Part shown: positions 18,621 to 32,108 of the stretch, piece by piece
Layout of the letters: each line of letters starts with the position of its first letter
Position numbering within the stretch: the stretch's first letter is position 1
NCBI GenBank assembly: GCA_012178725.1
Contig: GCA_012178725.1_3030.1
Origin: a phage
Reading direction: 5' to 3' (one strand)
Length of the DNA stretch: 64,000 bases
Translations under genes and position numbers: made by a program
The notes under the pieces: model-generated
Seen by the model: the letters and a program-made list of their open reading frames with translations, nothing else
Database searches by the model: none
What the model was told of the DNA's origin: nothing

Positions 18621-19133
18621 TTAATCTAAGGTAATAAAGCCTTTTAATTCGGCATGCGATTTGCGAAACATTACTTGATGCCCACCAATGATAACTTGAT
18701 CATCTGGCACTTCATAAATCGCAATGTACATTCCACGATCTTTTAAGTCTTCACGCTCTTCTCGAGTAAACCATCTCATTATATCATATTCACTAGCGAA
18801 AGCAAAATGATATAATGCAATAAACCACAATGGAATATAATTTTCAATTCGTGAATAATCTTTATTCCATTTAGTTTTAATAGCATCATTAGCATTTTCA
18901 ACTAATAACTTATCATCGTGCGGAATAGGAATACTTTCATGACTTTCATAATTATCGCTATGATGATGAAATGACGATGAATTAATACCGCAAAATTTTA
19001 GCCAAGTTCGAGTTTTCATAGAATCAAATCCACGATAAGGAGTTGATTGAACACATAACTCTTGCCTAATTTTCATTATACCACTATCATCATTTAATGC
19101 GCTAAACGATGATTCAACACGATAAATTTTCAT
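18621..19133 (-). CDS. Hypothetical protein
   Basis: 170 aa from internal ATG (MKIYRVESS...) with GAGGATAATAAA SD. Confidence 0.5.
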   Translation of the reverse strand: MKIYRVESSFSALNDDSGIMKIRQELCVQSTPYRGFDSMKTRTWLKFCGINSSSFHHHSDNYESHESIPIPHDDKLLVENANDAIKTKWNKDYSRIENYIPLWFIALYHFAFASEYDIMRWFTREEREDLKDRGMYIAIYEVPDDQVIIGGHQVMFRKSHAELKGFITLD

Positions 19134-26858: not shown

Positions 26859-27377
26859 TTAATAGCCTCGGTCTTGACGAGCGAAATTTTCAGCATTTTT
26901 CAGATAATAAAGTTTAAATATTTCTTCAGCTGACATTCCAAGAGCAATAAATTTATTCATGAAAAAGTGAAATTGGTCAATCAGTTCAAATTTAATTTCA
27001 AGCTGATCTTCAGGAGATAAGTCTTGAATTTTCTTGGATTGCATTTCAGAATAACGTTTCTTCCAAGGTTTCCATACGGCAGAAGCTTCTTTTTCACCAT
27101 TACTCATACCACCAAGAGAAGTATATAGCTCGCGAGTTTCATCTGCGATATAATCGTCTTGGTTTCGCAACCAAGCAAGAACTTCTCCTGCAGTTTCAAG
27201 TGAATCAGGATGACGATTTGTTTCTGGTTTATCATTAGCCAAACGAATCTGTAAATGCCGCTGCATATCAAGCATAACCTGCAGTGGGTCAATATTGTGC
27301 ATAATATTCTCAGCATATGCACGAGTTGCTTTATCAACACCTTCGATCAAATGAGCGCATTCATTAAAGTGAGCCAT
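26859..27377 (-). CDS. 56: dCTP pyrophosphatase gp56 (MazG-like)
   Basis: 172 aa from internal ATG (MAHFNECAHLIEGVDKA...); track ORF N-terminally extended; MotA-box middle promoter upstream. Confidence 0.88.
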   Translation of the reverse strand: MAHFNECAHLIEGVDKATRAYAENIMHNIDPLQVMLDMQRHLQIRLANDKPETNRHPDSLETAGEVLAWLRNQDDYIADETRELYTSLGGMSNGEKEASAVWKPWKKRYSEMQSKKIQDLSPEDQLEIKFELIDQFHFFMNKFIALGMSAEEIFKLYYLKNAENFARQDRGY

Positions 27378-27411
27378 TATTTTTCCTTTCAATTCATGGG
27401 TTAGTAGATTA

Positions 27412-27437
27412 ATTATACAATAAATATATAAAGCAAT
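27412..27437 (-). promoter_or_regulatory. Candidate middle promoter upstream of gene 56
   Basis: Minus strand TTGCTTTA - 11 nt - TATAAT. Confidence 0.45.
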
Positions 27438-27448
27438 AAGGAGGACAT

Positions 27449-27649
27449 ATGGTACAAAAATTAATGGCACTTGTTAATGCCATAAAAGGTAATAAAAAAC
27501 GTATAGCTTTTACTATTTCTGCTATGGTAGGAATTTTACTCTGGAACTTTATTCTATCACCTGTTGCAATTGCACATGGTATTAATATTCCAGTAGTTAC
27601 TCTTGATACATTTGTAGATTTAGCATTTGCTTTAGTTGGGTTGATTTAA
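27449..27649 (+). CDS. Small membrane protein (plus strand), 66 aa
   Basis: Strong SD AAGGAGGACAT-ATG; two hydrophobic segments; occupies the 56-61 interval. Confidence 0.45.
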   Translation: MVQKLMALVNAIKGNKKRIAFTISAMVGILLWNFILSPVAIAHGINIPVVTLDTFVDLAFALVGLI

Positions 27650-28674
27650 ATCTTAGCATATTTAGATAGCCGCATTTTAGCCATCAACCCCTGGGCAATA
27701 TTATTTTTCATATATTCCATAATTTGTTCAGGGGTTGCACCTTCCTTTCTAATCATATCATTAACATCTTTTGATTTCCAGGGAGATTTATCCCAAAACA
27801 TAACCCTTTCTCCTGCATCAACTAATTTAGTCATTCGCTTAATAGTGTCAGGATGACGAGGTTCATTATCTAAAACCCACACTCGTCTATCTTTAAATGG
27901 AACAACTTCTAGGTCTAATTGACCACCCGTAATAGCTATACCATTTTCAATAAAAAGTGAATCTATAGGTCCTTCTAGAACATATACATCACCATCTTTA
28001 ACTCGTTCGACTCCATAGATTTTTGTTGCTTCAGGATAAGCTTTGATGGTGATATATTTTTGGGGAGCATCTTTCTTTAATGCACGTCCTTGAAAAGACT
28101 CAGCTTTTCCATTAGCATTATAAATTGGAATAACAAGACGAGGCTCAGGTATTTCCTTTTTATATGTTCCCGGTGCTATACTATTAACTAATTTAGGCCA
28201 TTCGGTTGTAAACCAAAGATATTTCCATTTATCCTTTGGAATACAACGAGCTTTTACATATTTTATAATTGGATGGTCTTCCGCCAATTTATCTAATCTA
28301 ACACATGACAGAAGAGATTTAATTATTTTCTTCTCAGGTTGTTTAGGAAGTTCTTTAGGTTTTTCTACTGGACGACTTTTACCTTTTTCTTTTCTTATTT
28401 CAAAGATATACTCACGATATAAATCGGGTTCAAACTCCTTTAAATATATTCCGATTGGCGCATGATAGTTACAGTTATAACAATGAATATTTCCTTCATT
28501 ATTATCGCCATAATACCATCCACGAGCTTTATTCTGGTCGGTTTTTGAATCTCCACAAACAGGGCATCTAAACCGTAATTTAAAAGTTGAACTATTATTT
28601 ACTTGTGTGAATTTAGGTAAATGAGCTAATGCACGGTATGCAAACTCATTATCAATCCAAGGTATTGATGACAT
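27646..28674 (-). CDS. 61: DNA primase gp61
   Basis: 342 aa; zinc ribbon CPVC...CYNC plus TOPRIM-like region; T4 gp61 size. Confidence 0.95.
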   Translation of the reverse strand: MSSIPWIDNEFAYRALAHLPKFTQVNNSSTFKLRFRCPVCGDSKTDQNKARGWYYGDNNEGNIHCYNCNYHAPIGIYLKEFEPDLYREYIFEIRKEKGKSRPVEKPKELPKQPEKKIIKSLLSCVRLDKLAEDHPIIKYVKARCIPKDKWKYLWFTTEWPKLVNSIAPGTYKKEIPEPRLVIPIYNANGKAESFQGRALKKDAPQKYITIKAYPEATKIYGVERVKDGDVYVLEGPIDSLFIENGIAITGGQLDLEVVPFKDRRVWVLDNEPRHPDTIKRMTKLVDAGERVMFWDKSPWKSKDVNDMIRKEGATPEQIMEYMKNNIAQGLMAKMRLSKYAKI

Positions 28675-28676
28675 TT

Positions 28677-28841
28677 TTACTCTTCTTTTTCTTTAGATTC
28701 CTCTTTTTTCTTTTTAGGAATCTGTTCAGGACCTTTATTTACTACAGCGCCTGATGTTGTTCCAGTAGAGATATTTTCAGGATTACCACCTGAATCTCCA
28801 GCGACCATATCTTCTTTGATAAATTCTTTATATGTTTTCAT
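28677..28841 (-). CDS. Small Lys/Glu-rich protein (61.1-like), 54 aa
   Basis: Hand-translated MKTYKEFIKEDMVAGDSGGNPENISTGTTSGAVVNKGPEQIPKKKKEESKEKKR*; TAATATG junction. Confidence 0.4.
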   Translation of the reverse strand: MKTYKEFIKEDMVAGDSGGNPENISTGTTSGAVVNKGPEQIPKKKKEESKEKEE

Positions 28842-28842
28842 A

Positions 28843-28888
28843 TTAACCTCTATTCATAAAAGCATTAAAAATTTGGTCATCAATAGAT
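28843..28888. repeat. 46-bp direct repeat, copy 1 (3' end of the 118-aa ORF)
   Basis: ttaacctctattcataaaagcattaaaaatttggtcatcaataga; 45/46 identical to copy at 29201..29246. Confidence 0.8.
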
Positions 28889-29199
28889 GGTGCAGTAATA
28901 TTTTCTGCATCATTTAGCAAATCATTAATTTCATCAAATAGCATAACACATGTACCTTTATTTCCTGTAATTGTTACTGCGCAATTACGAACGTTTTCTT
29001 TATTAAATTTTAGGTTAATATTTTCGTAATGAAAATCCTTTAATGCTGAATATATTTTTAAAATAAAATTGTCTTTTACTACAATAAACCCAACCTCACT
29101 ATTAAAACGTGGTTCATGGAAACTGTAATAAACCTTTTCATCTATAAAATCGTATGAAATTTTTTCCATTTTTAAATATGAAAATTCAGAACTATACAT
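28843..29199 (-). CDS. Paralog of the C-terminal half of the adjacent 61.2-like protein
   Basis: 118 aa; shares F(I/V)VKDN motif and identical tail SIDDQIFNAFMNR with the 208-aa neighbour; 46-bp near-exact DNA repeat at the 3' end. Confidence 0.5.
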   Translation of the reverse strand: MYSSEFSYLKMEKISYDFIDEKVYYSFHEPRFNSEVGFIVVKDNFILKIYSALKDFHYENINLKFNKENVRNCAVTITGNKGTCVMLFDEINDLLNDAENITAPSIDDQIFNAFMNRG

Positions 29200-29200
29200 A

Positions 29201-29246
29201 TTAATCTCTATTCATAAAAGCATTAAAAATTTGGTCATCAATAGAA
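29201..29246. repeat. 46-bp direct repeat, copy 2 (3' end of the 61.2-like ORF)
   Basis: ttaatctctattcataaaagcattaaaaatttggtcatcaataga. Confidence 0.8.
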
Positions 29247-29827
29247 ACATTTACTTTAGACTGTTTTTCAGATGGCAATTCATATCCACATATTACAATT
29301 TTATGATCAATATCAAAATACACAGAAGCAATATGATTAATGATATTTTCAGTGAAGTCTAAATCGACATCAATATCTTTTTGACCAAAGCCCAAAGGAT
29401 AAATAATGCGAGTAATTCGATTATCTTTAACAAAGATTCCACCGACATACTCTGTACTGCGTTTAAAGTCTACACGCCGACGAAATGAAAAATATTCAGG
29501 CTCTTTATGAGCTCGGCTCATAGGACACAACGAATAACTAGAATAAGAGATGTCAAATCCTACGCCTTCGATATGAGCCAAAGTGTCATGATTAAACCAA
29601 TTATAATCGTACGCCAAATCCATTAGATTATAATATGTAAAAGGCACCGGATTAACATCATTAGTCACAAGCATGTAATTAGCAACTGCTATAATTTCAT
29701 TGTTTTTAACGAATACAAACCGTGATTGATGCGAATGACCTGGACCCGCGTTTTCACGATTAATGATATAACACTGGGCACCTTTATATTTGTATGTATC
29801 TTTGCACTTGTGCATTTGATAGAGCAT
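29201..29827 (-). CDS. Hypothetical protein (61.2-like)
   Basis: 208-aa ORF between sp and gene 61. Confidence 0.5.
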   Translation of the reverse strand: MLYQMHKCKDTYKYKGAQCYIINRENAGPGHSHQSRFVFVKNNEIIAVANYMLVTNDVNPVPFTYYNLMDLAYDYNWFNHDTLAHIEGVGFDISYSSYSLCPMSRAHKEPEYFSFRRRVDFKRSTEYVGGIFVKDNRITRIIYPLGFGQKDIDVDLDFTENIINHIASVYFDIDHKIVICGYELPSEKQSKVNVSIDDQIFNAFMNRD

Positions 29828-30120
29828 TATTCACCTACCACTTCAGCGATGATATTTTTGTTATTAAAGTTTTTATCGCAATACAGAACATAATTATACT
29901 GCATTACACCACCAGACTTAAGCTGTTTTTGCACTTCAGCTTTCATTTCAGGACGATCGCGCTTAACGATATTCATAATATCTGCTTCAATTTGAGTTTC
30001 AACCTCAGTCTGATCAGCAGTCATAGACCATTCGCACAAATCTTTATCATAACCTGCCATAGCAGGCTGAGCAGCACAAGAAGCTAAAGCAAAAATTGTA
30101 GCAAAAATAAATTTTTTCAT
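29827..30120 (-). CDS. sp: Spackle periplasmic protein Sp (61.3)
   Basis: 97 aa with signal peptide MKKFIFATIFALASCAAQPAMA; T4 Sp size and position. Confidence 0.85.
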   Translation of the reverse strand: MKKFIFATIFALASCAAQPAMAGYDKDLCEWSMTADQTEVETQIEADIMNIVKRDRPEMKAEVQKQLKSGGVMQYNYVLYCDKNFNNKNIIAEVVGE

Positions 30121-30180
30121 GATAATCTCCTCAGTAGTTTATGTTTATATAGTATCTCAATTTCCAACAAAAGTAAACAG

Positions 30181-30438
30181 CTATTTTAAAACTTCTGCGT
30201 AATCACATGTTACAAACTGTTTCTCTAGCTTAACGATCTTACGAAAGTATCTTTTACATTGACGAATCTGTCGCTTAGTAGGGCGCACAGCAAACTTAAT
30301 AAATTCCACTCGACCAAATGGAGGGCTTTCTTCTGATGGAATATCTAACACCAATTCCCACGTATCTGCAATAAGTGCTTTGAATTGCGTATTTTTCCTG
30401 ACGTTATACGGAGTAGGTTTAAATAAAACAATATGCAT
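30181..30438 (-). CDS. tifA: TifA-like protein (61.4; ToxIN inhibitor in T4)
   Basis: 85 aa from ATG one base after dmd stop (TAATATG, GAGGA SD); basic; position immediately downstream of dmd. Confidence 0.55.
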   Translation of the reverse strand: MHIVLFKPTPYNVRKNTQFKALIADTWELVLDIPSEESPPFGRVEFIKFAVRPTKRQIRQCKRYFRKIVKLEKQFVTCDYAEVLK

Positions 30439-30439
30439 A

Positions 30440-30622
30440 TTATCCTCGGCAATCCACTTCACATACTTTCTTGTCATCAATGAAAGCTTTAACTAATGCT
30501 TTATTAACTTCAGCATACTGAGTAGTAGCCCATTGAACGTCATCTTTCATCATTGTGATTTCTTTAGTAAACATGCTTTCATTCTTAAACCATCCCATAA
30601 AAACTACCTTTACCAATTCCAT
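30440..30622 (-). CDS. dmd: Dmd antitoxin (RnlA/LsoA inhibitor)
   Basis: 60 aa, matches remembered T4 Dmd (MELVKVVFMGWFKNESMFTKEITMMKDDVQWATTQY...). Confidence 0.85.
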   Translation of the reverse strand: MELVKVVFMGWFKNESMFTKEITMMKDDVQWATTQYAEVNKALVKAFIDDKKVCEVDCRG

Positions 30623-30680
30623 AACAATCTCCTCATTTAACCAACAAGACTACTATACCATAGTCTCGTCAGCTTGTAAA

Positions 30681-32108
30681 CTAAAATTTTAATTCATTCG
30701 CCAAAGCATCTAACTGAGCTCGAGTGGATTCATTTCTTTGATAGCGATTCTGCTCAGCCTGAATCTGTTGTGAACCTGCTACTTCGTTCACTTCAGTTGG
30801 AGTAGAATCTTGTTCAATTTCTACCCATTTCTGATTTCCCTTTTGAACACCCATCAAAAACTTATTCCACTTATTCTTATCGCCATATCGTGATTTGATT
30901 TGCTTAATGAGTTGTTGTTCAGCAGCTGCTAGCTCCTCGGTTTCAATGACCGCAAGCATAAAATCGGCTGTTGCTGGAAGACCGGCAGATTCTGCAATAT
31001 CGCTCATGTTAACATCAGAAGAGTCCCAAGCTTGTTTACCGACCTGTGCTGCAGTCCAAAGAACAGTTTCGGTTTCAACAGCCAGAGCACGCAATTCCTC
31101 TGCAATAGCTTTAACAGTTGTGTAACTATTTTCTGAATAAACTCGGATGCGACAAGATTTACAAATACCCAGATAATCTACAATAATGATTGTTGGAACA
31201 AAATTCTTCTTGAGCTTCAATTCATTCAAGAGAGACCTGAATGTATTAGCGTCTGCTCCACCAGTAGGATACTGTTTAACGATTAAACGACCAAGAGTAG
31301 ATTTCTCACGCCATTTTTCCATTTTTCCTTTATACTCAGCGTAAGAAATATGCCCATCATCAATGTCATCAAGAGAAACATCAAGCATATTAGCATCAAT
31401 ACGCTTAGCACAGACTTCTTCTGCCATTTCCATGGAAATGTAAAGAACATTATGTCCGAGCTGCAAATAATCTGCTGCCAATGAACACAGACCTAATGAC
31501 TTACCAACGTTAACGCCAGCCATTAAAACGTTCAGTGTTCCAGTCTCAGCTCCGCCTTTAGTAATTTTATTTAGAATTCTGAGTTTAAATGGAACTTTAC
31601 GAGCTTTATTCATATAAGATAGCCAGCGTGCTTCGTAGTCATCCATCCAATCATGACCAACGTAGCTATCAAATGAAATTGATAATGCTTGGCGCATGAT
31701 GTCAGGAATAGCACCAACATCCGGCATTTTCTTATTTCGTTTTTCCGGAGGAAGCTCAGCATTAGTTTGAATTTCGATTATTTTAGACGTAGCATTAAAC
31801 ATCGCCCTTTGCTGAACATATTTTTCTGTTTCTTTTACTAACCAGCTGTGGTCTTCTGGAGAATCAGCCAGTTTTGAAATAAGTGTTTTTACACCAGAAT
31901 ATTCTGTTTCAGTAAATGAACTATTTTCTAATGCAACATTTAACGCATTAATAGATGGAACGCTATGGTACTCATTAACATGAGATTTAATTAATTTGAA
32001 TGTATTTTTAGCTGGACCACTTTCAAAATATTCTGAATCCATATATGGCCAAACTTTTGAAAAATAAGCTTGATCAAATATAAGATGAGAAAGAATAATT
32101 TCTACCAC
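30681..32108 (-). CDS. 41: Replicative DNA helicase gp41 (DnaB family)
   Basis: 475 aa; Walker A GVNVGKS; T4 gp41 size. Confidence 0.95.
   Translation of the reverse strand: MVEIILSHLIFDQAYFSKVWPYMDSEYFESGPAKNTFKLIKSHVNEYHSVPSINALNVALENSSFTETEYSGVKTLISKLADSPEDHSWLVKETEKYVQQRAMFNATSKIIEIQTNAELPPEKRNKKMPDVGAIPDIMRQALSISFDSYVGHDWMDDYEARWLSYMNKARKVPFKLRILNKITKGGAETGTLNVLMAGVNVGKSLGLCSLAADYLQLGHNVLYISMEMAEEVCAKRIDANMLDVSLDDIDDGHISYAEYKGKMEKWREKSTLGRLIVKQYPTGGADANTFRSLLNELKLKKNFVPTIIIVDYLGICKSCRIRVYSENSYTTVKAIAEELRALAVETETVLWTAAQVGKQAWDSSDVNMSDIAESAGLPATADFMLAVIETEELAAAEQQLIKQIKSRYGDKNKWNKFLMGVQKGNQKWVEIEQDSTPTEVNEVAGSQQIQAEQNRYQRNESTRAQLDALANELKF

Follow-up and report, generated by a model that had tools for sequence, protein, structure and literature searches.

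Introduction

Among the closest described systems is AdfA, a phage protein that is reportedly described in LeRoux et al. 2022. AdfA, i.e., anti-DarT factor A, corresponds to T4 gene 61.2 (PMC11257639, PMC11825919, PMC9391042), and the neighbourhood formed by adfA, tifA and dmd has been termed the anti-TA island (PMC11257639, PMC9391042). A histidine at position 164 of the RB69 protein is critical for the neutralisation of DarT1 by AdfA, T2 has been described as devoid of an adfA homologue, and AdfN has been reported to be necessary for DarTG1 resistance (PMC11257639). Recombination at short homologies is documented in T4 by amplifications of dmd-tifA and by compensating deletions at microhomologies of 6–10 bp (PMC9391042), while T4-type genomes also undergo a modular shuffling of PeSLs, i.e., promoter-early stem-loop cassettes (PMC2839356, PMC4122927). 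Finally, Table 1 of PMC2988021 places the start of the T4 middle promoter P61 at T4 position 19122, and the consensus stated there for the MotA box is (a/t)(a/t)(a/t)TGCTTtA, located near −30 and at 12 ± 1 bp from a −10 element TAtaaT.

The locus studied here lies in this neighbourhood and features a direct repeat at the 3' ends of two adjacent genes, which is probably to be explained as a composite 3'-end module combining a peptide, expression signals and a recombination point.

The repeat and its genomic context

The window (i.e., the whole stretch of 64,000 nucleotides that was analysed) belongs to a Tequatrovirus, and the region of interest is 98–98.6% identical to many Tequatrovirus genomes, the closest being that of vB_EcoM_G10400, with RB18 also close. 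On the minus strand, the genes follow each other in the order gp41 helicase, dmd, tifA (61.4), sp, a 208-aa ORF, a 118-aa ORF, 61.1 and gp61 primase. The 208-aa ORF matches the Pfam AdfA profile (PF23813; 211 positions, gathering cutoff of 27 bits) with 451.9 bits (E = 3.1e-136), residues 1–207 being aligned to model positions 1–210, and its sequence marks it as a full-length member of the AdfA family. Like known AdfA proteins, it is full-length and has (in the stretch ...NIINHIAS...) a histidine, at residue 165, that is the equivalent of RB69 residue 164. In what follows, the 208-aa ORF is referred to as adfA (or A) and the 118-aa ORF as gene B, while the repeated 3' end is called the tail. 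The features of the locus are the following.

27646..28674, minus strand: gene 61 (DNA primase), which is under the control of P61 in T4
28677..28841, minus strand: gene 61.1, 54 aa, beginning with the ATG that closes repeat copy 1
28839..28887, minus strand: repeat copy 1, consisting of the last 14 codons of gene B (SIDDQIFNAFMNRG), TAA, T and the ATG of 61.1
28843..29199, minus strand: gene B, 118 aa (RB32ORF033c type, phrog_4122), single domain, under purifying selection
28847..28850, minus strand: Shine-Dalgarno GAGG, 5 nt upstream of the ATG of 61.1, as read from the sequence
29197..29245, minus strand: repeat copy 2, consisting of the last 14 codons of adfA (SIDDQIFNAFMNRD), TAA, T and the ATG of gene B
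29201..29827, minus strand: adfA (T4 gene 61.2), anti-DarT factor A, 208 aa, Pfam PF23813
29205–29208, minus strand: Shine-Dalgarno counterpart upstream of gene B, a weaker GAGA, as read from the sequence
29827..30120, minus strand: sp (spackle), the left border of the variable slot, whose stop overlaps the adfA start (TAATG)

A repeat search of the window yielded a direct repeat of 49 nt, with 48 identical positions out of 49 (98%) and a spacing of 358 nt between the two copies. When up to three mismatches are tolerated, the window contains exactly two copies, for 0 expected in 100 shuffles. The sole mismatch (28847/29205; G vs. A on the coding strand) affects the last codon, which is GGT (Gly) in gene B and GAT (Asp) in adfA, and the 60-nt flanks are only 33% and 27% identical between copies, so that the boundaries of the repeat are sharp. 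Both proteins end in SIDDQIFNAFMNR, and a (I/V)VKDN motif is present in both.

The first-pass annotation had described two ORFs with a direct repeat at their 3' ends, a shared protein tail and an F(I/V)VKDN-type motif, all of which are present as it said, on the minus strand. It had given the repeat as 46 bp with 45 identities (28843..28888 vs. 29201..29246): the repeat is real, but these intervals are identical at 44 positions out of 46, because position 28888/29246 falls outside of the repeat. The repeat also runs 4 nt further in the 3' direction, through the stop codon, a T and the next ATG. The same two-copy layout is found in many independently sequenced phages and in metagenome contigs, which rules out an assembly artefact. 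That the repeat would be due to chance or to such an artefact is of negligible probability, since we found no point speaking for it, whereas the shuffles yield no match and the structure recurs in many independent isolates.

Gene B and its kinship with AdfA

Gene B reaches 30.8 bits against the Pfam AdfA profile (cutoff of 27), yet its match to PF23813 is not full-length, as it covers model positions 113–211 only. Using hhalign, residues 20–118 of B are aligned with residues 110–210 of A with a probability of 97.4%. Much of this similarity score derives from the tail: once the tail is removed, there is no significant BLASTP match between the A and B proteins of the window, and the best pair, i.e., A of Sf21 vs. 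B of the window, shows 33% identity over 64 aa. Gene B forms its own PHROG family (phrog_4122) and is best described, as far as such profile comparisons can tell, as remotely related to AdfA in its C-terminal half. The earlier view of the 118-aa ORF as a paralog of the C-terminal half of the 208-aa ORF is thus upheld by both scores where relatedness is concerned, while the case is weak without the tail.

Gene B corresponds to the annotated RB32ORF033c (‘some similarity to gp61.2’) of RB32, RB18, RB14 and Kha5h, to which it is 93–99% identical. These annotations note the similarity to gp61.2, but they include neither the 49-nt module, nor the promoter, nor the pattern of presence/absence, and a literature search for RB32ORF033c and gp61.2 returned nothing relevant. 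B orthologues have dN/dS values of 0.19–0.34, which implies that B is a real gene under purifying selection. Its family is very small: a profile search of 1.84 billion cluster representatives (E ≤ 0.001) produced six matches, corresponding to B clusters of 118, 119 and 125 aa, one AdfA cluster and proteins of 3237 and 459 aa.

In comparison to AdfA, B is devoid of the N-terminal half, and the histidine equivalent to RB69 residue 164 is absent from it, the hhalign alignment placing Cys73 where AdfA has its critical residue. Moreover, T2 carries B and no adfA, in agreement with the published remark that T2 lacks adfA. Considering both Cys73 and the presence of B without adfA in T2, B is probably not a DarT1 inhibitor. 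On the structural side, a Foldseek search with the AlphaFold model of AdfA (pLDDT of 69.7) gave no PDB match at E ≤ 0.001, and a fold assignment of AdfA from this model of low to moderate confidence was dropped. The AlphaFold model of B (pLDDT of 58.2) is too weak for a structure search.

The first-pass annotation had interpreted the locus as a partial tandem duplication. If B had recently been duplicated from the 3' half of adfA, the repeat would be the part that has not yet diverged, and the adjacency of the two genes, their common orientation, their identical ends and the alignment of B with the C-terminal half of AdfA in profile comparisons all go in that direction. At the DNA level, however, the C-terminal half of A and the body of B, once codon-aligned, are 42% identical with a pS of 0.76, i.e., their synonymous sites are saturated, whereas the last 14 codons show 0 synonymous differences over 7 synonymous sites. 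At the boundary of the repeat, identity leaps from 33% to 98%, which is more abrupt than a uniform decay would produce, and the bodies alone, as reported above, do not match in BLASTP. Furthermore, B has lineages of its own located beside a gene other than adfA, including a 125-aa form and the homologue of Gapriverviruses (VR7 and TH15), which is 44% identical and follows a 145-aa gene (hereafter C) instead of adfA. The existence of such diverged homologues beside C implies that the split between A and B is older than these genera. A recent duplication is therefore very improbable, and the sequences depict B as an old and remote relative of the C-terminal half of AdfA.

A conserved C-terminal peptide

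The tail encodes the peptide [S/A][I/V]DDQIFNAFM[N/K]R[G/D], which ends the A, B and C proteins in four Tevenvirinae genera. It is found on A in Tequatrovirus and in RB69-like loci, on B in Tequatrovirus, in Gaprivervirus and in a third lineage of 125 aa ending in SIDDQIFNAFMNRG, and on C (145 aa) in Dhakavirus (IME341) and Gaprivervirus. The genes bearing it are always located in the slot directly after sp. According to hhalign, C can be aligned to A or B only across 15–22 columns, all in the tail, and phrog_8539 matches B in the tail only. The C–B gene order of VR7 could suggest that AdfA is a fusion protein, with its N-terminal part derived from a C-like gene and its C-terminal part from a B-like one, but this scenario was rejected on account of these few aligned columns.

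Across 17 distinct tail DNA sequences, variation in the 30-nt core (DDQIFNAFMN) is confined to 7 columns, all of them third codon positions (P = 5.9e-5), which points to selection on the amino-acid sequence. The identity of the peptide is thus best attributed, on this pattern of variation, mainly to a conserved C-terminal motif of three protein types, kept by selection at the protein level, a cause that the first-pass annotation had overlooked. AlphaFold2 models a C-terminal helix in the tail of both A (residues 196–205) and B (residues 106–116), with the pLDDT values of 69.7 and 58.2 given above, and the spacing of the hydrophobic residues (i, i+1, i+4, i+5) suggests that this helix is amphipathic.

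A bolder interpretation, which we regard as possible yet rather doubtful, is that the tail would be a portable and autonomous docking helix, mounted on three different bodies and mediating either the binding of a shared partner or an association between A and B, its DNA doubling as a promoter and a recombination hinge, and the slot after sp hosting plug-and-play anti-toxin cassettes. If this were true, selection in Tevenvirinae would act jointly on the protein motif, the promoter and the recombination site.

A middle promoter within the tail

P61 is said to have been mapped by Marshall, Sharma and Hinton in 1999. Its assignment to the T4 tail was made here from the review table and by coordinate arithmetic. 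T4 positions 19132 and 19130 are the end of adfA and the start of 61.1, respectively. The motif TGCTTTT (19153–19147) lies inside the Asn-Ala-Phe codons, the motif TAATAT (19134–19129) is composed of the stop codon TAA, a T and the AT of the ATG of 61.1, and position 19122 is an A, 7 nt downstream of TAATAT. The T4 tail thus contains a MotA box, a 12-nt spacer and a −10 element exactly where the published start at 19122 requires them.

Copy 1 of the window is identical to the T4 tail, with the same MotA box, spacer and −10 element at the same place upstream of 61.1 and 61, so that, judging from sequence and position, it is the orthologue of both the T4 adfA tail and P61. While T4 has a single P61-type copy, the window has a second one, 358 nt upstream and before gene B, with one change in the spacer. 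The corresponding promoter features are given below.

28840..28867, minus strand: predicted P61 orthologue, with MotA box TAATGCTTTT at 28867–28858, a 12-nt spacer and −10 TAATAT at 28845–28840
28833, minus strand: predicted +1 of the copy-1 promoter, inside 61.1
29198..29225, minus strand: second promoter motif, putatively active, with MotA box at 29225–29216 and −10 TAATAT at 29203–29198
near 29191–29193, minus strand: predicted +1 of the copy-2 promoter, 6–8 nt inside gene B

In both copies, the MotA box TAATGCTTTT matches the consensus at 9 of its 10 positions and the −10 element is TAATAT, which conforms to the sigma-70 pattern TAnnnT, the 12-nt spacer being ATGAATAGAGGT in copy 1 and differing by one base in copy 2 (...GAT, with GAT for GGT). 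The pattern TGCTTYW-N(11-13)-TANNNT occurs 24 times in the window, compared to 5.2 times expected, and both tails are among the matches. Owing to a start located just inside the 61.1 ORF, P61 would serve gene 61 and not 61.1. Likewise, with a predicted start inside gene B, the copy-2 promoter, which may be active, cannot express B.

The other genera have GCA or GCC in place of GCT as the Ala codon, or else use the stop codon TGA, giving TGATAT. Such degraded MotA boxes and −10 elements make the promoter lineage-specific, and it does not explain the conservation of the peptide. In T4-type phages, the idea of a sequence constrained as DNA, already put forward in the first-pass annotation, agrees with the coincidence of the repeat with the mapped T4 P61 and with Shine-Dalgarno, stop and start signals. 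From a practical point of view, engineered adfA deletions or tail fusions can disturb P61, and hence the expression of primase (gene 61).

The same annotation had also proposed a constraint acting on RNA, and this part did not withstand analysis. The corresponding scenario is that of a conserved hairpin (UCUAUU.GAUGA ... UUAU.AAUAGA) that sequesters the Shine-Dalgarno, regulates the next gene and thereby conserves the sequence. In the minimum-free-energy fold, the 5' part of the tail does pair with its 3' part, and the Shine-Dalgarno is partly covered, but the folding energies of the two tails are unremarkable (z = −1.18 and −0.17). Across the 17 distinct tails, no pair shows a compensatory change, the only variation in 5 of the 10 hairpin pairs is a loss of pairing, and the shuffles have a higher mean covariation score. 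In the absence of both a significant energy and covariation, the hairpin was rejected, and we consider its role in conserving the sequence as highly improbable. A search for terminator-like sites in 28400–30700 returned none.

Exchange between the two tails

Given the same peptide and the codon usage of the window, the chance that both tails use identical codons is 3.5e-4 (13 codons), while a hand estimate limited to the sites free of promoter and Shine-Dalgarno constraint puts identity by chance at about 0.004. The free sites that vary in other tails are the third positions of the Ser, Ile, Asp, Asp, Gln, Ile and Asn codons, along with the choice between AGA and CGA. Taken together, the low chance of identical codons and the variation of free sites elsewhere imply that an exchange between the tails is needed.

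More direct evidence comes from two metagenome loci (L023 and L024) that have different adfA alleles, one of the Sf21 type (72% identical in amino acids to AdfA of the window) and one of the window type. When these loci are compared, mismatches remain dense along A until the Asp-Asp codons of its tail, after which there are 0 mismatches for more than 700 nt, across B and 61.1 and into 61. We read this pattern as direct evidence of a crossover inside the A tail between the two types. The allele combinations seen are A1+B1, A2+B1 and A2+B2, where A1 and B1 are of the window type and A2 and B2 of the Sf21 type.

Several variants also bear on the question. Sf22, Kha5h and L024 have an AAA (Lys) variant that is confined to the A tail, PinkRuby has it in both tails (which are identical at 49/49 positions), and the window, G10400, slur03/04, teqhad, FriedrichMiescher and RB18 have it in neither. 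For the second Asp codon, both tails read GAC in window-type phages and GAT in the Sf21 group, and an Asn to Lys replacement (FMKR) is found in both tails of Gapriverviruses. Variants common to both paralogous tails, which are the criterion of concerted evolution, are thus observed in this small sample. This evidence for conversion comes from a small number of variable positions across about 30 loci, and single sites may also have mutated recurrently. In Gaprivervirus, the two tails differ at 5–9 of 49 nt, which indicates that homogenisation is not universal.

The contending explanation is that constraint alone, i.e., the peptide, the promoter, the Shine-Dalgarno and codon bias, made the tails converge on the same DNA without any recombination. 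This has some appeal, in that the tail overlaps the MotA box and −10 element of P61, a Shine-Dalgarno, a stop codon and an ATG, and in that codon usage is strongly biased. Yet sites outside of these signals vary freely in other tails, both of the above chance estimates are low, and the crossover mapped in the tail, like the variant common to both tails, tells that exchange does happen. Constraint as the sole cause is accordingly unlikely. The homogenisation of the two ends, for which the first-pass annotation had invoked a recent gene conversion, is in turn backed by the same lines of evidence and by the lack of synonymous differences in the tail, in the sense of an exchange that can be either a conversion or a crossover.

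Gain and loss of genes across phages

The comparison of copy number across related phages, advised from the outset, revealed four arrangements: neither gene, with sp, a 12-nt linker and 61.1 (RB3 and relatives); A only (T4); B only (T2); A and B (the window and many others). The adfA–61.1 junction of T4 has the exact structure of a repeat-to-repeat deletion product, namely the left flank of adfA, one tail and the right flank of 61.1. B is present in 299 phage records and the sp-B junction in 141, so that, by subtraction, about 158 records have both A and B, while the uninterrupted A-tail-61.1 junction occurs in 167. The matches to B are distributed over 301 places in these 299 records, and two records may hold two B copies; the synthetic query for a B-B duplication junction was confounded, in that two pieces were joined within a single B gene. 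The count of 100 records with neither gene is an upper bound, as it includes joined two-piece matches, at least 13 matches being full-length in a single piece. Among these single-piece matches listed are RB3, RB5-7, RB9, RB10, phiC600P9, BP32, Nami, RPN226 and BYEP01. Scans of viral contigs and metagenomes provided 13 and 7 loci, respectively, and our population figures combine BLAST counts with about 35 loci.

In the identity matrices of the A and B bodies, genomes with A only or B only are scattered among those with both genes. For instance, the A-only loci L007 and L008 resemble the window, RB18 and L024 more than they resemble T4, and T2 (B only) is closest to the window. This distribution indicates, at the level of sequence comparison, repeated gain and loss events, with recombination likely to blur any tree. 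The same relation as between A+B and A only exists between Gaprivervirus (C, B, tifA-like) and Dhakavirus (C, tifA-like).

The first-pass annotation had seen in the repeat a ready deletion or amplification site in the region of sp, tifA and dmd. Deletion is supported by the T4 junction and the 167 records, but a threat to these three genes is not, since the copies flank only gene B, so that recombination between them removes or duplicates only the 358-bp unit. A+B phages should lose B at a measurable rate.

A second junction type deserves mention. The sp-B and sp-61.1 junctions (TTAGAGG[T/C]TA[G/A]TATG) are similar to the 14 nt that close the tail, and the Shine-Dalgarno/start linker (~14 nt) may constitute a second, shorter recombination junction. 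In T2, the sp-B junction (GAATAA TTAGAGGTTAGTATG) was also evaluated as a deletion from a window-type genome, a candidate that was discarded because it is not a simple microhomology product. This junction resembles the sp-61.1 linker of RB3 joined to B, which would fit recombination at the ~14-nt linker.

Comparison with known systems

Overall, the repeat is real but largely explained by known elements. According to the composite explanation that we favour, the 3'-end module would stand at the end of each gene in a small, variable array that follows sp, within the anti-TA island. First, it encodes a conserved C-terminal peptide, predicted to be helical and common to A, B and C. Second, in T4-type phages, its DNA would hold the MotA-dependent P61 as well as the Shine-Dalgarno and the start codon of the next gene. 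Third, the presence of the same ~49 nt at the end of adjacent genes would offer homology to the very active recombination machinery of T4. Recombination at the module would delete or add B, reassort A and B alleles between co-infecting phages and convert the tails, the latter process keeping the copies near-identical even though the gene bodies were saturated long ago.

Such turnover matters because the gene content of the anti-TA island affects which bacterial defences a phage overcomes, and a single module with a peptide, a promoter and a junction would explain in concrete terms how counter-defence genes turn over rapidly. B, which is present in about half of the sequenced Tequatroviruses, and the 145-aa C are candidates for an anti-defence function. 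These findings do not overturn current understanding. AdfA, P61, the RB32ORF033c annotation, the short-homology recombination of T4 and PeSL-type shuffling were already known, while, within our literature search, we did not find described that one 49-nt module serves as the peptide of three bodies, a promoter and a hinge.

The repeat is like PeSLs in that a short conserved expression signal, at the gene borders of a variable region, acts as a recombination junction for the turnover of small genes. It is unlike them in coding for a selected peptide, in having a middle instead of an early promoter and in having no stem-loop terminator, the combination that defines PeSLs (an early sigma-70 promoter and an intergenic stem-loop terminator) being absent at the repeat. 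As for the dmd-tifA events of T4 (PMC9391042), they share with the repeat the neighbourhood, the recombination machinery and the fact that repeats set the end points. The T4 events were selected in the laboratory and used ad hoc microhomologies around dmd-tifA, whereas the present case involves a natural 49-nt repeat around gene B only.

Uneven Divergence and a Pseudogene at the adfA Locus

Synonymous divergence between the window and Sf21 is strongly uneven along the locus: dS is 0.11 in gene 61 (primase) and 0.13 in 61.1, and higher in B, the 118-aa RB32ORF033c-type gene (0.47), in adfA (T4 gene 61.2; 0.76) and in sp (0.51), the changeover lying at the tail of B, i.e., the 49-nt module that closes both adfA and B. 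This switch is consistent with counter-defence genes that are old, possibly diversifying, alleles set in a homogenised backbone.

In Shigella phage CT01 (OK018184.1; 650-1212 of locus L030), adfA is a pseudogene, in which a 38-nt deletion causes a frameshift past residue 71, and a second, in-frame deletion of 15 nt, flanked by two TCTA microhomologies, removes the residues SKVNV exactly at the start of the tail. The 15-nt loss illustrates microhomology deletion at the adfA locus.

Variation in Gene Content Around adfA and B

The presence/absence polymorphism of adfA and B is adjoined by a second one, that of the dam methyltransferase gene. This gene is absent from the window between gene 56 (dCTPase) and gene 61 (26859-27649), an interval of which the sole ORF is of the "dam.1" type; the intervals of RB18, Sf21 and RB3 are similar to that of the window, T4 carries dam at the equivalent position, and T2 has dam and an additional ORF. 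The island itself varies beyond adfA and B, as shown by RB3 and by locus L005 of a relative, whose 109-aa ORF has no counterpart in the window. Finally, the Dhakavirus and Gaprivervirus loci harbour, besides the tifA homologue upstream of sp, a second, tifA-like gene of 73 aa, which features the motif ARPTKRQ[IL]RKLKK and is labelled 61.4-like in the VR7 record. For tifA itself, the internal ATG is more likely to be the start than the TTG of the mechanically called ORF.

Features of the window and of related loci
Window 27449-27649, plus strand: 66-aa ORF of the RB69ORF029w ("dam.1") type, predicted membrane protein
RB3 (locus L018) 945-1199: gene separating 61.4 from sp, with the annotation "goF mRNA metabolism modulator"
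L005 4657-4986: 109-aa ORF, between gene 41 and dmd
L005 6417-6638 and L019 2859-3080 (Dhakavirus and Gaprivervirus loci): 73-aa tifA-like gene, directly 3' of the tail-bearing gene
Window 30181-30480: tifA as mechanically called, 99 aa, TTG start, overlapping the end of dmd
Window 30181-30438: tifA with the start of the T4 annotation, internal ATG (MHIVLF...), 85 aa

Middle-Promoter Pattern

Across the whole window, the MotA-type middle-promoter pattern TGCTTYW-N(11-13)-TANNNT is matched 24 times (5.2 expected), with 18 of the matches on the minus strand, which is the direction of the genes examined. Several of the 24 probably correspond to known T4 middle promoters.
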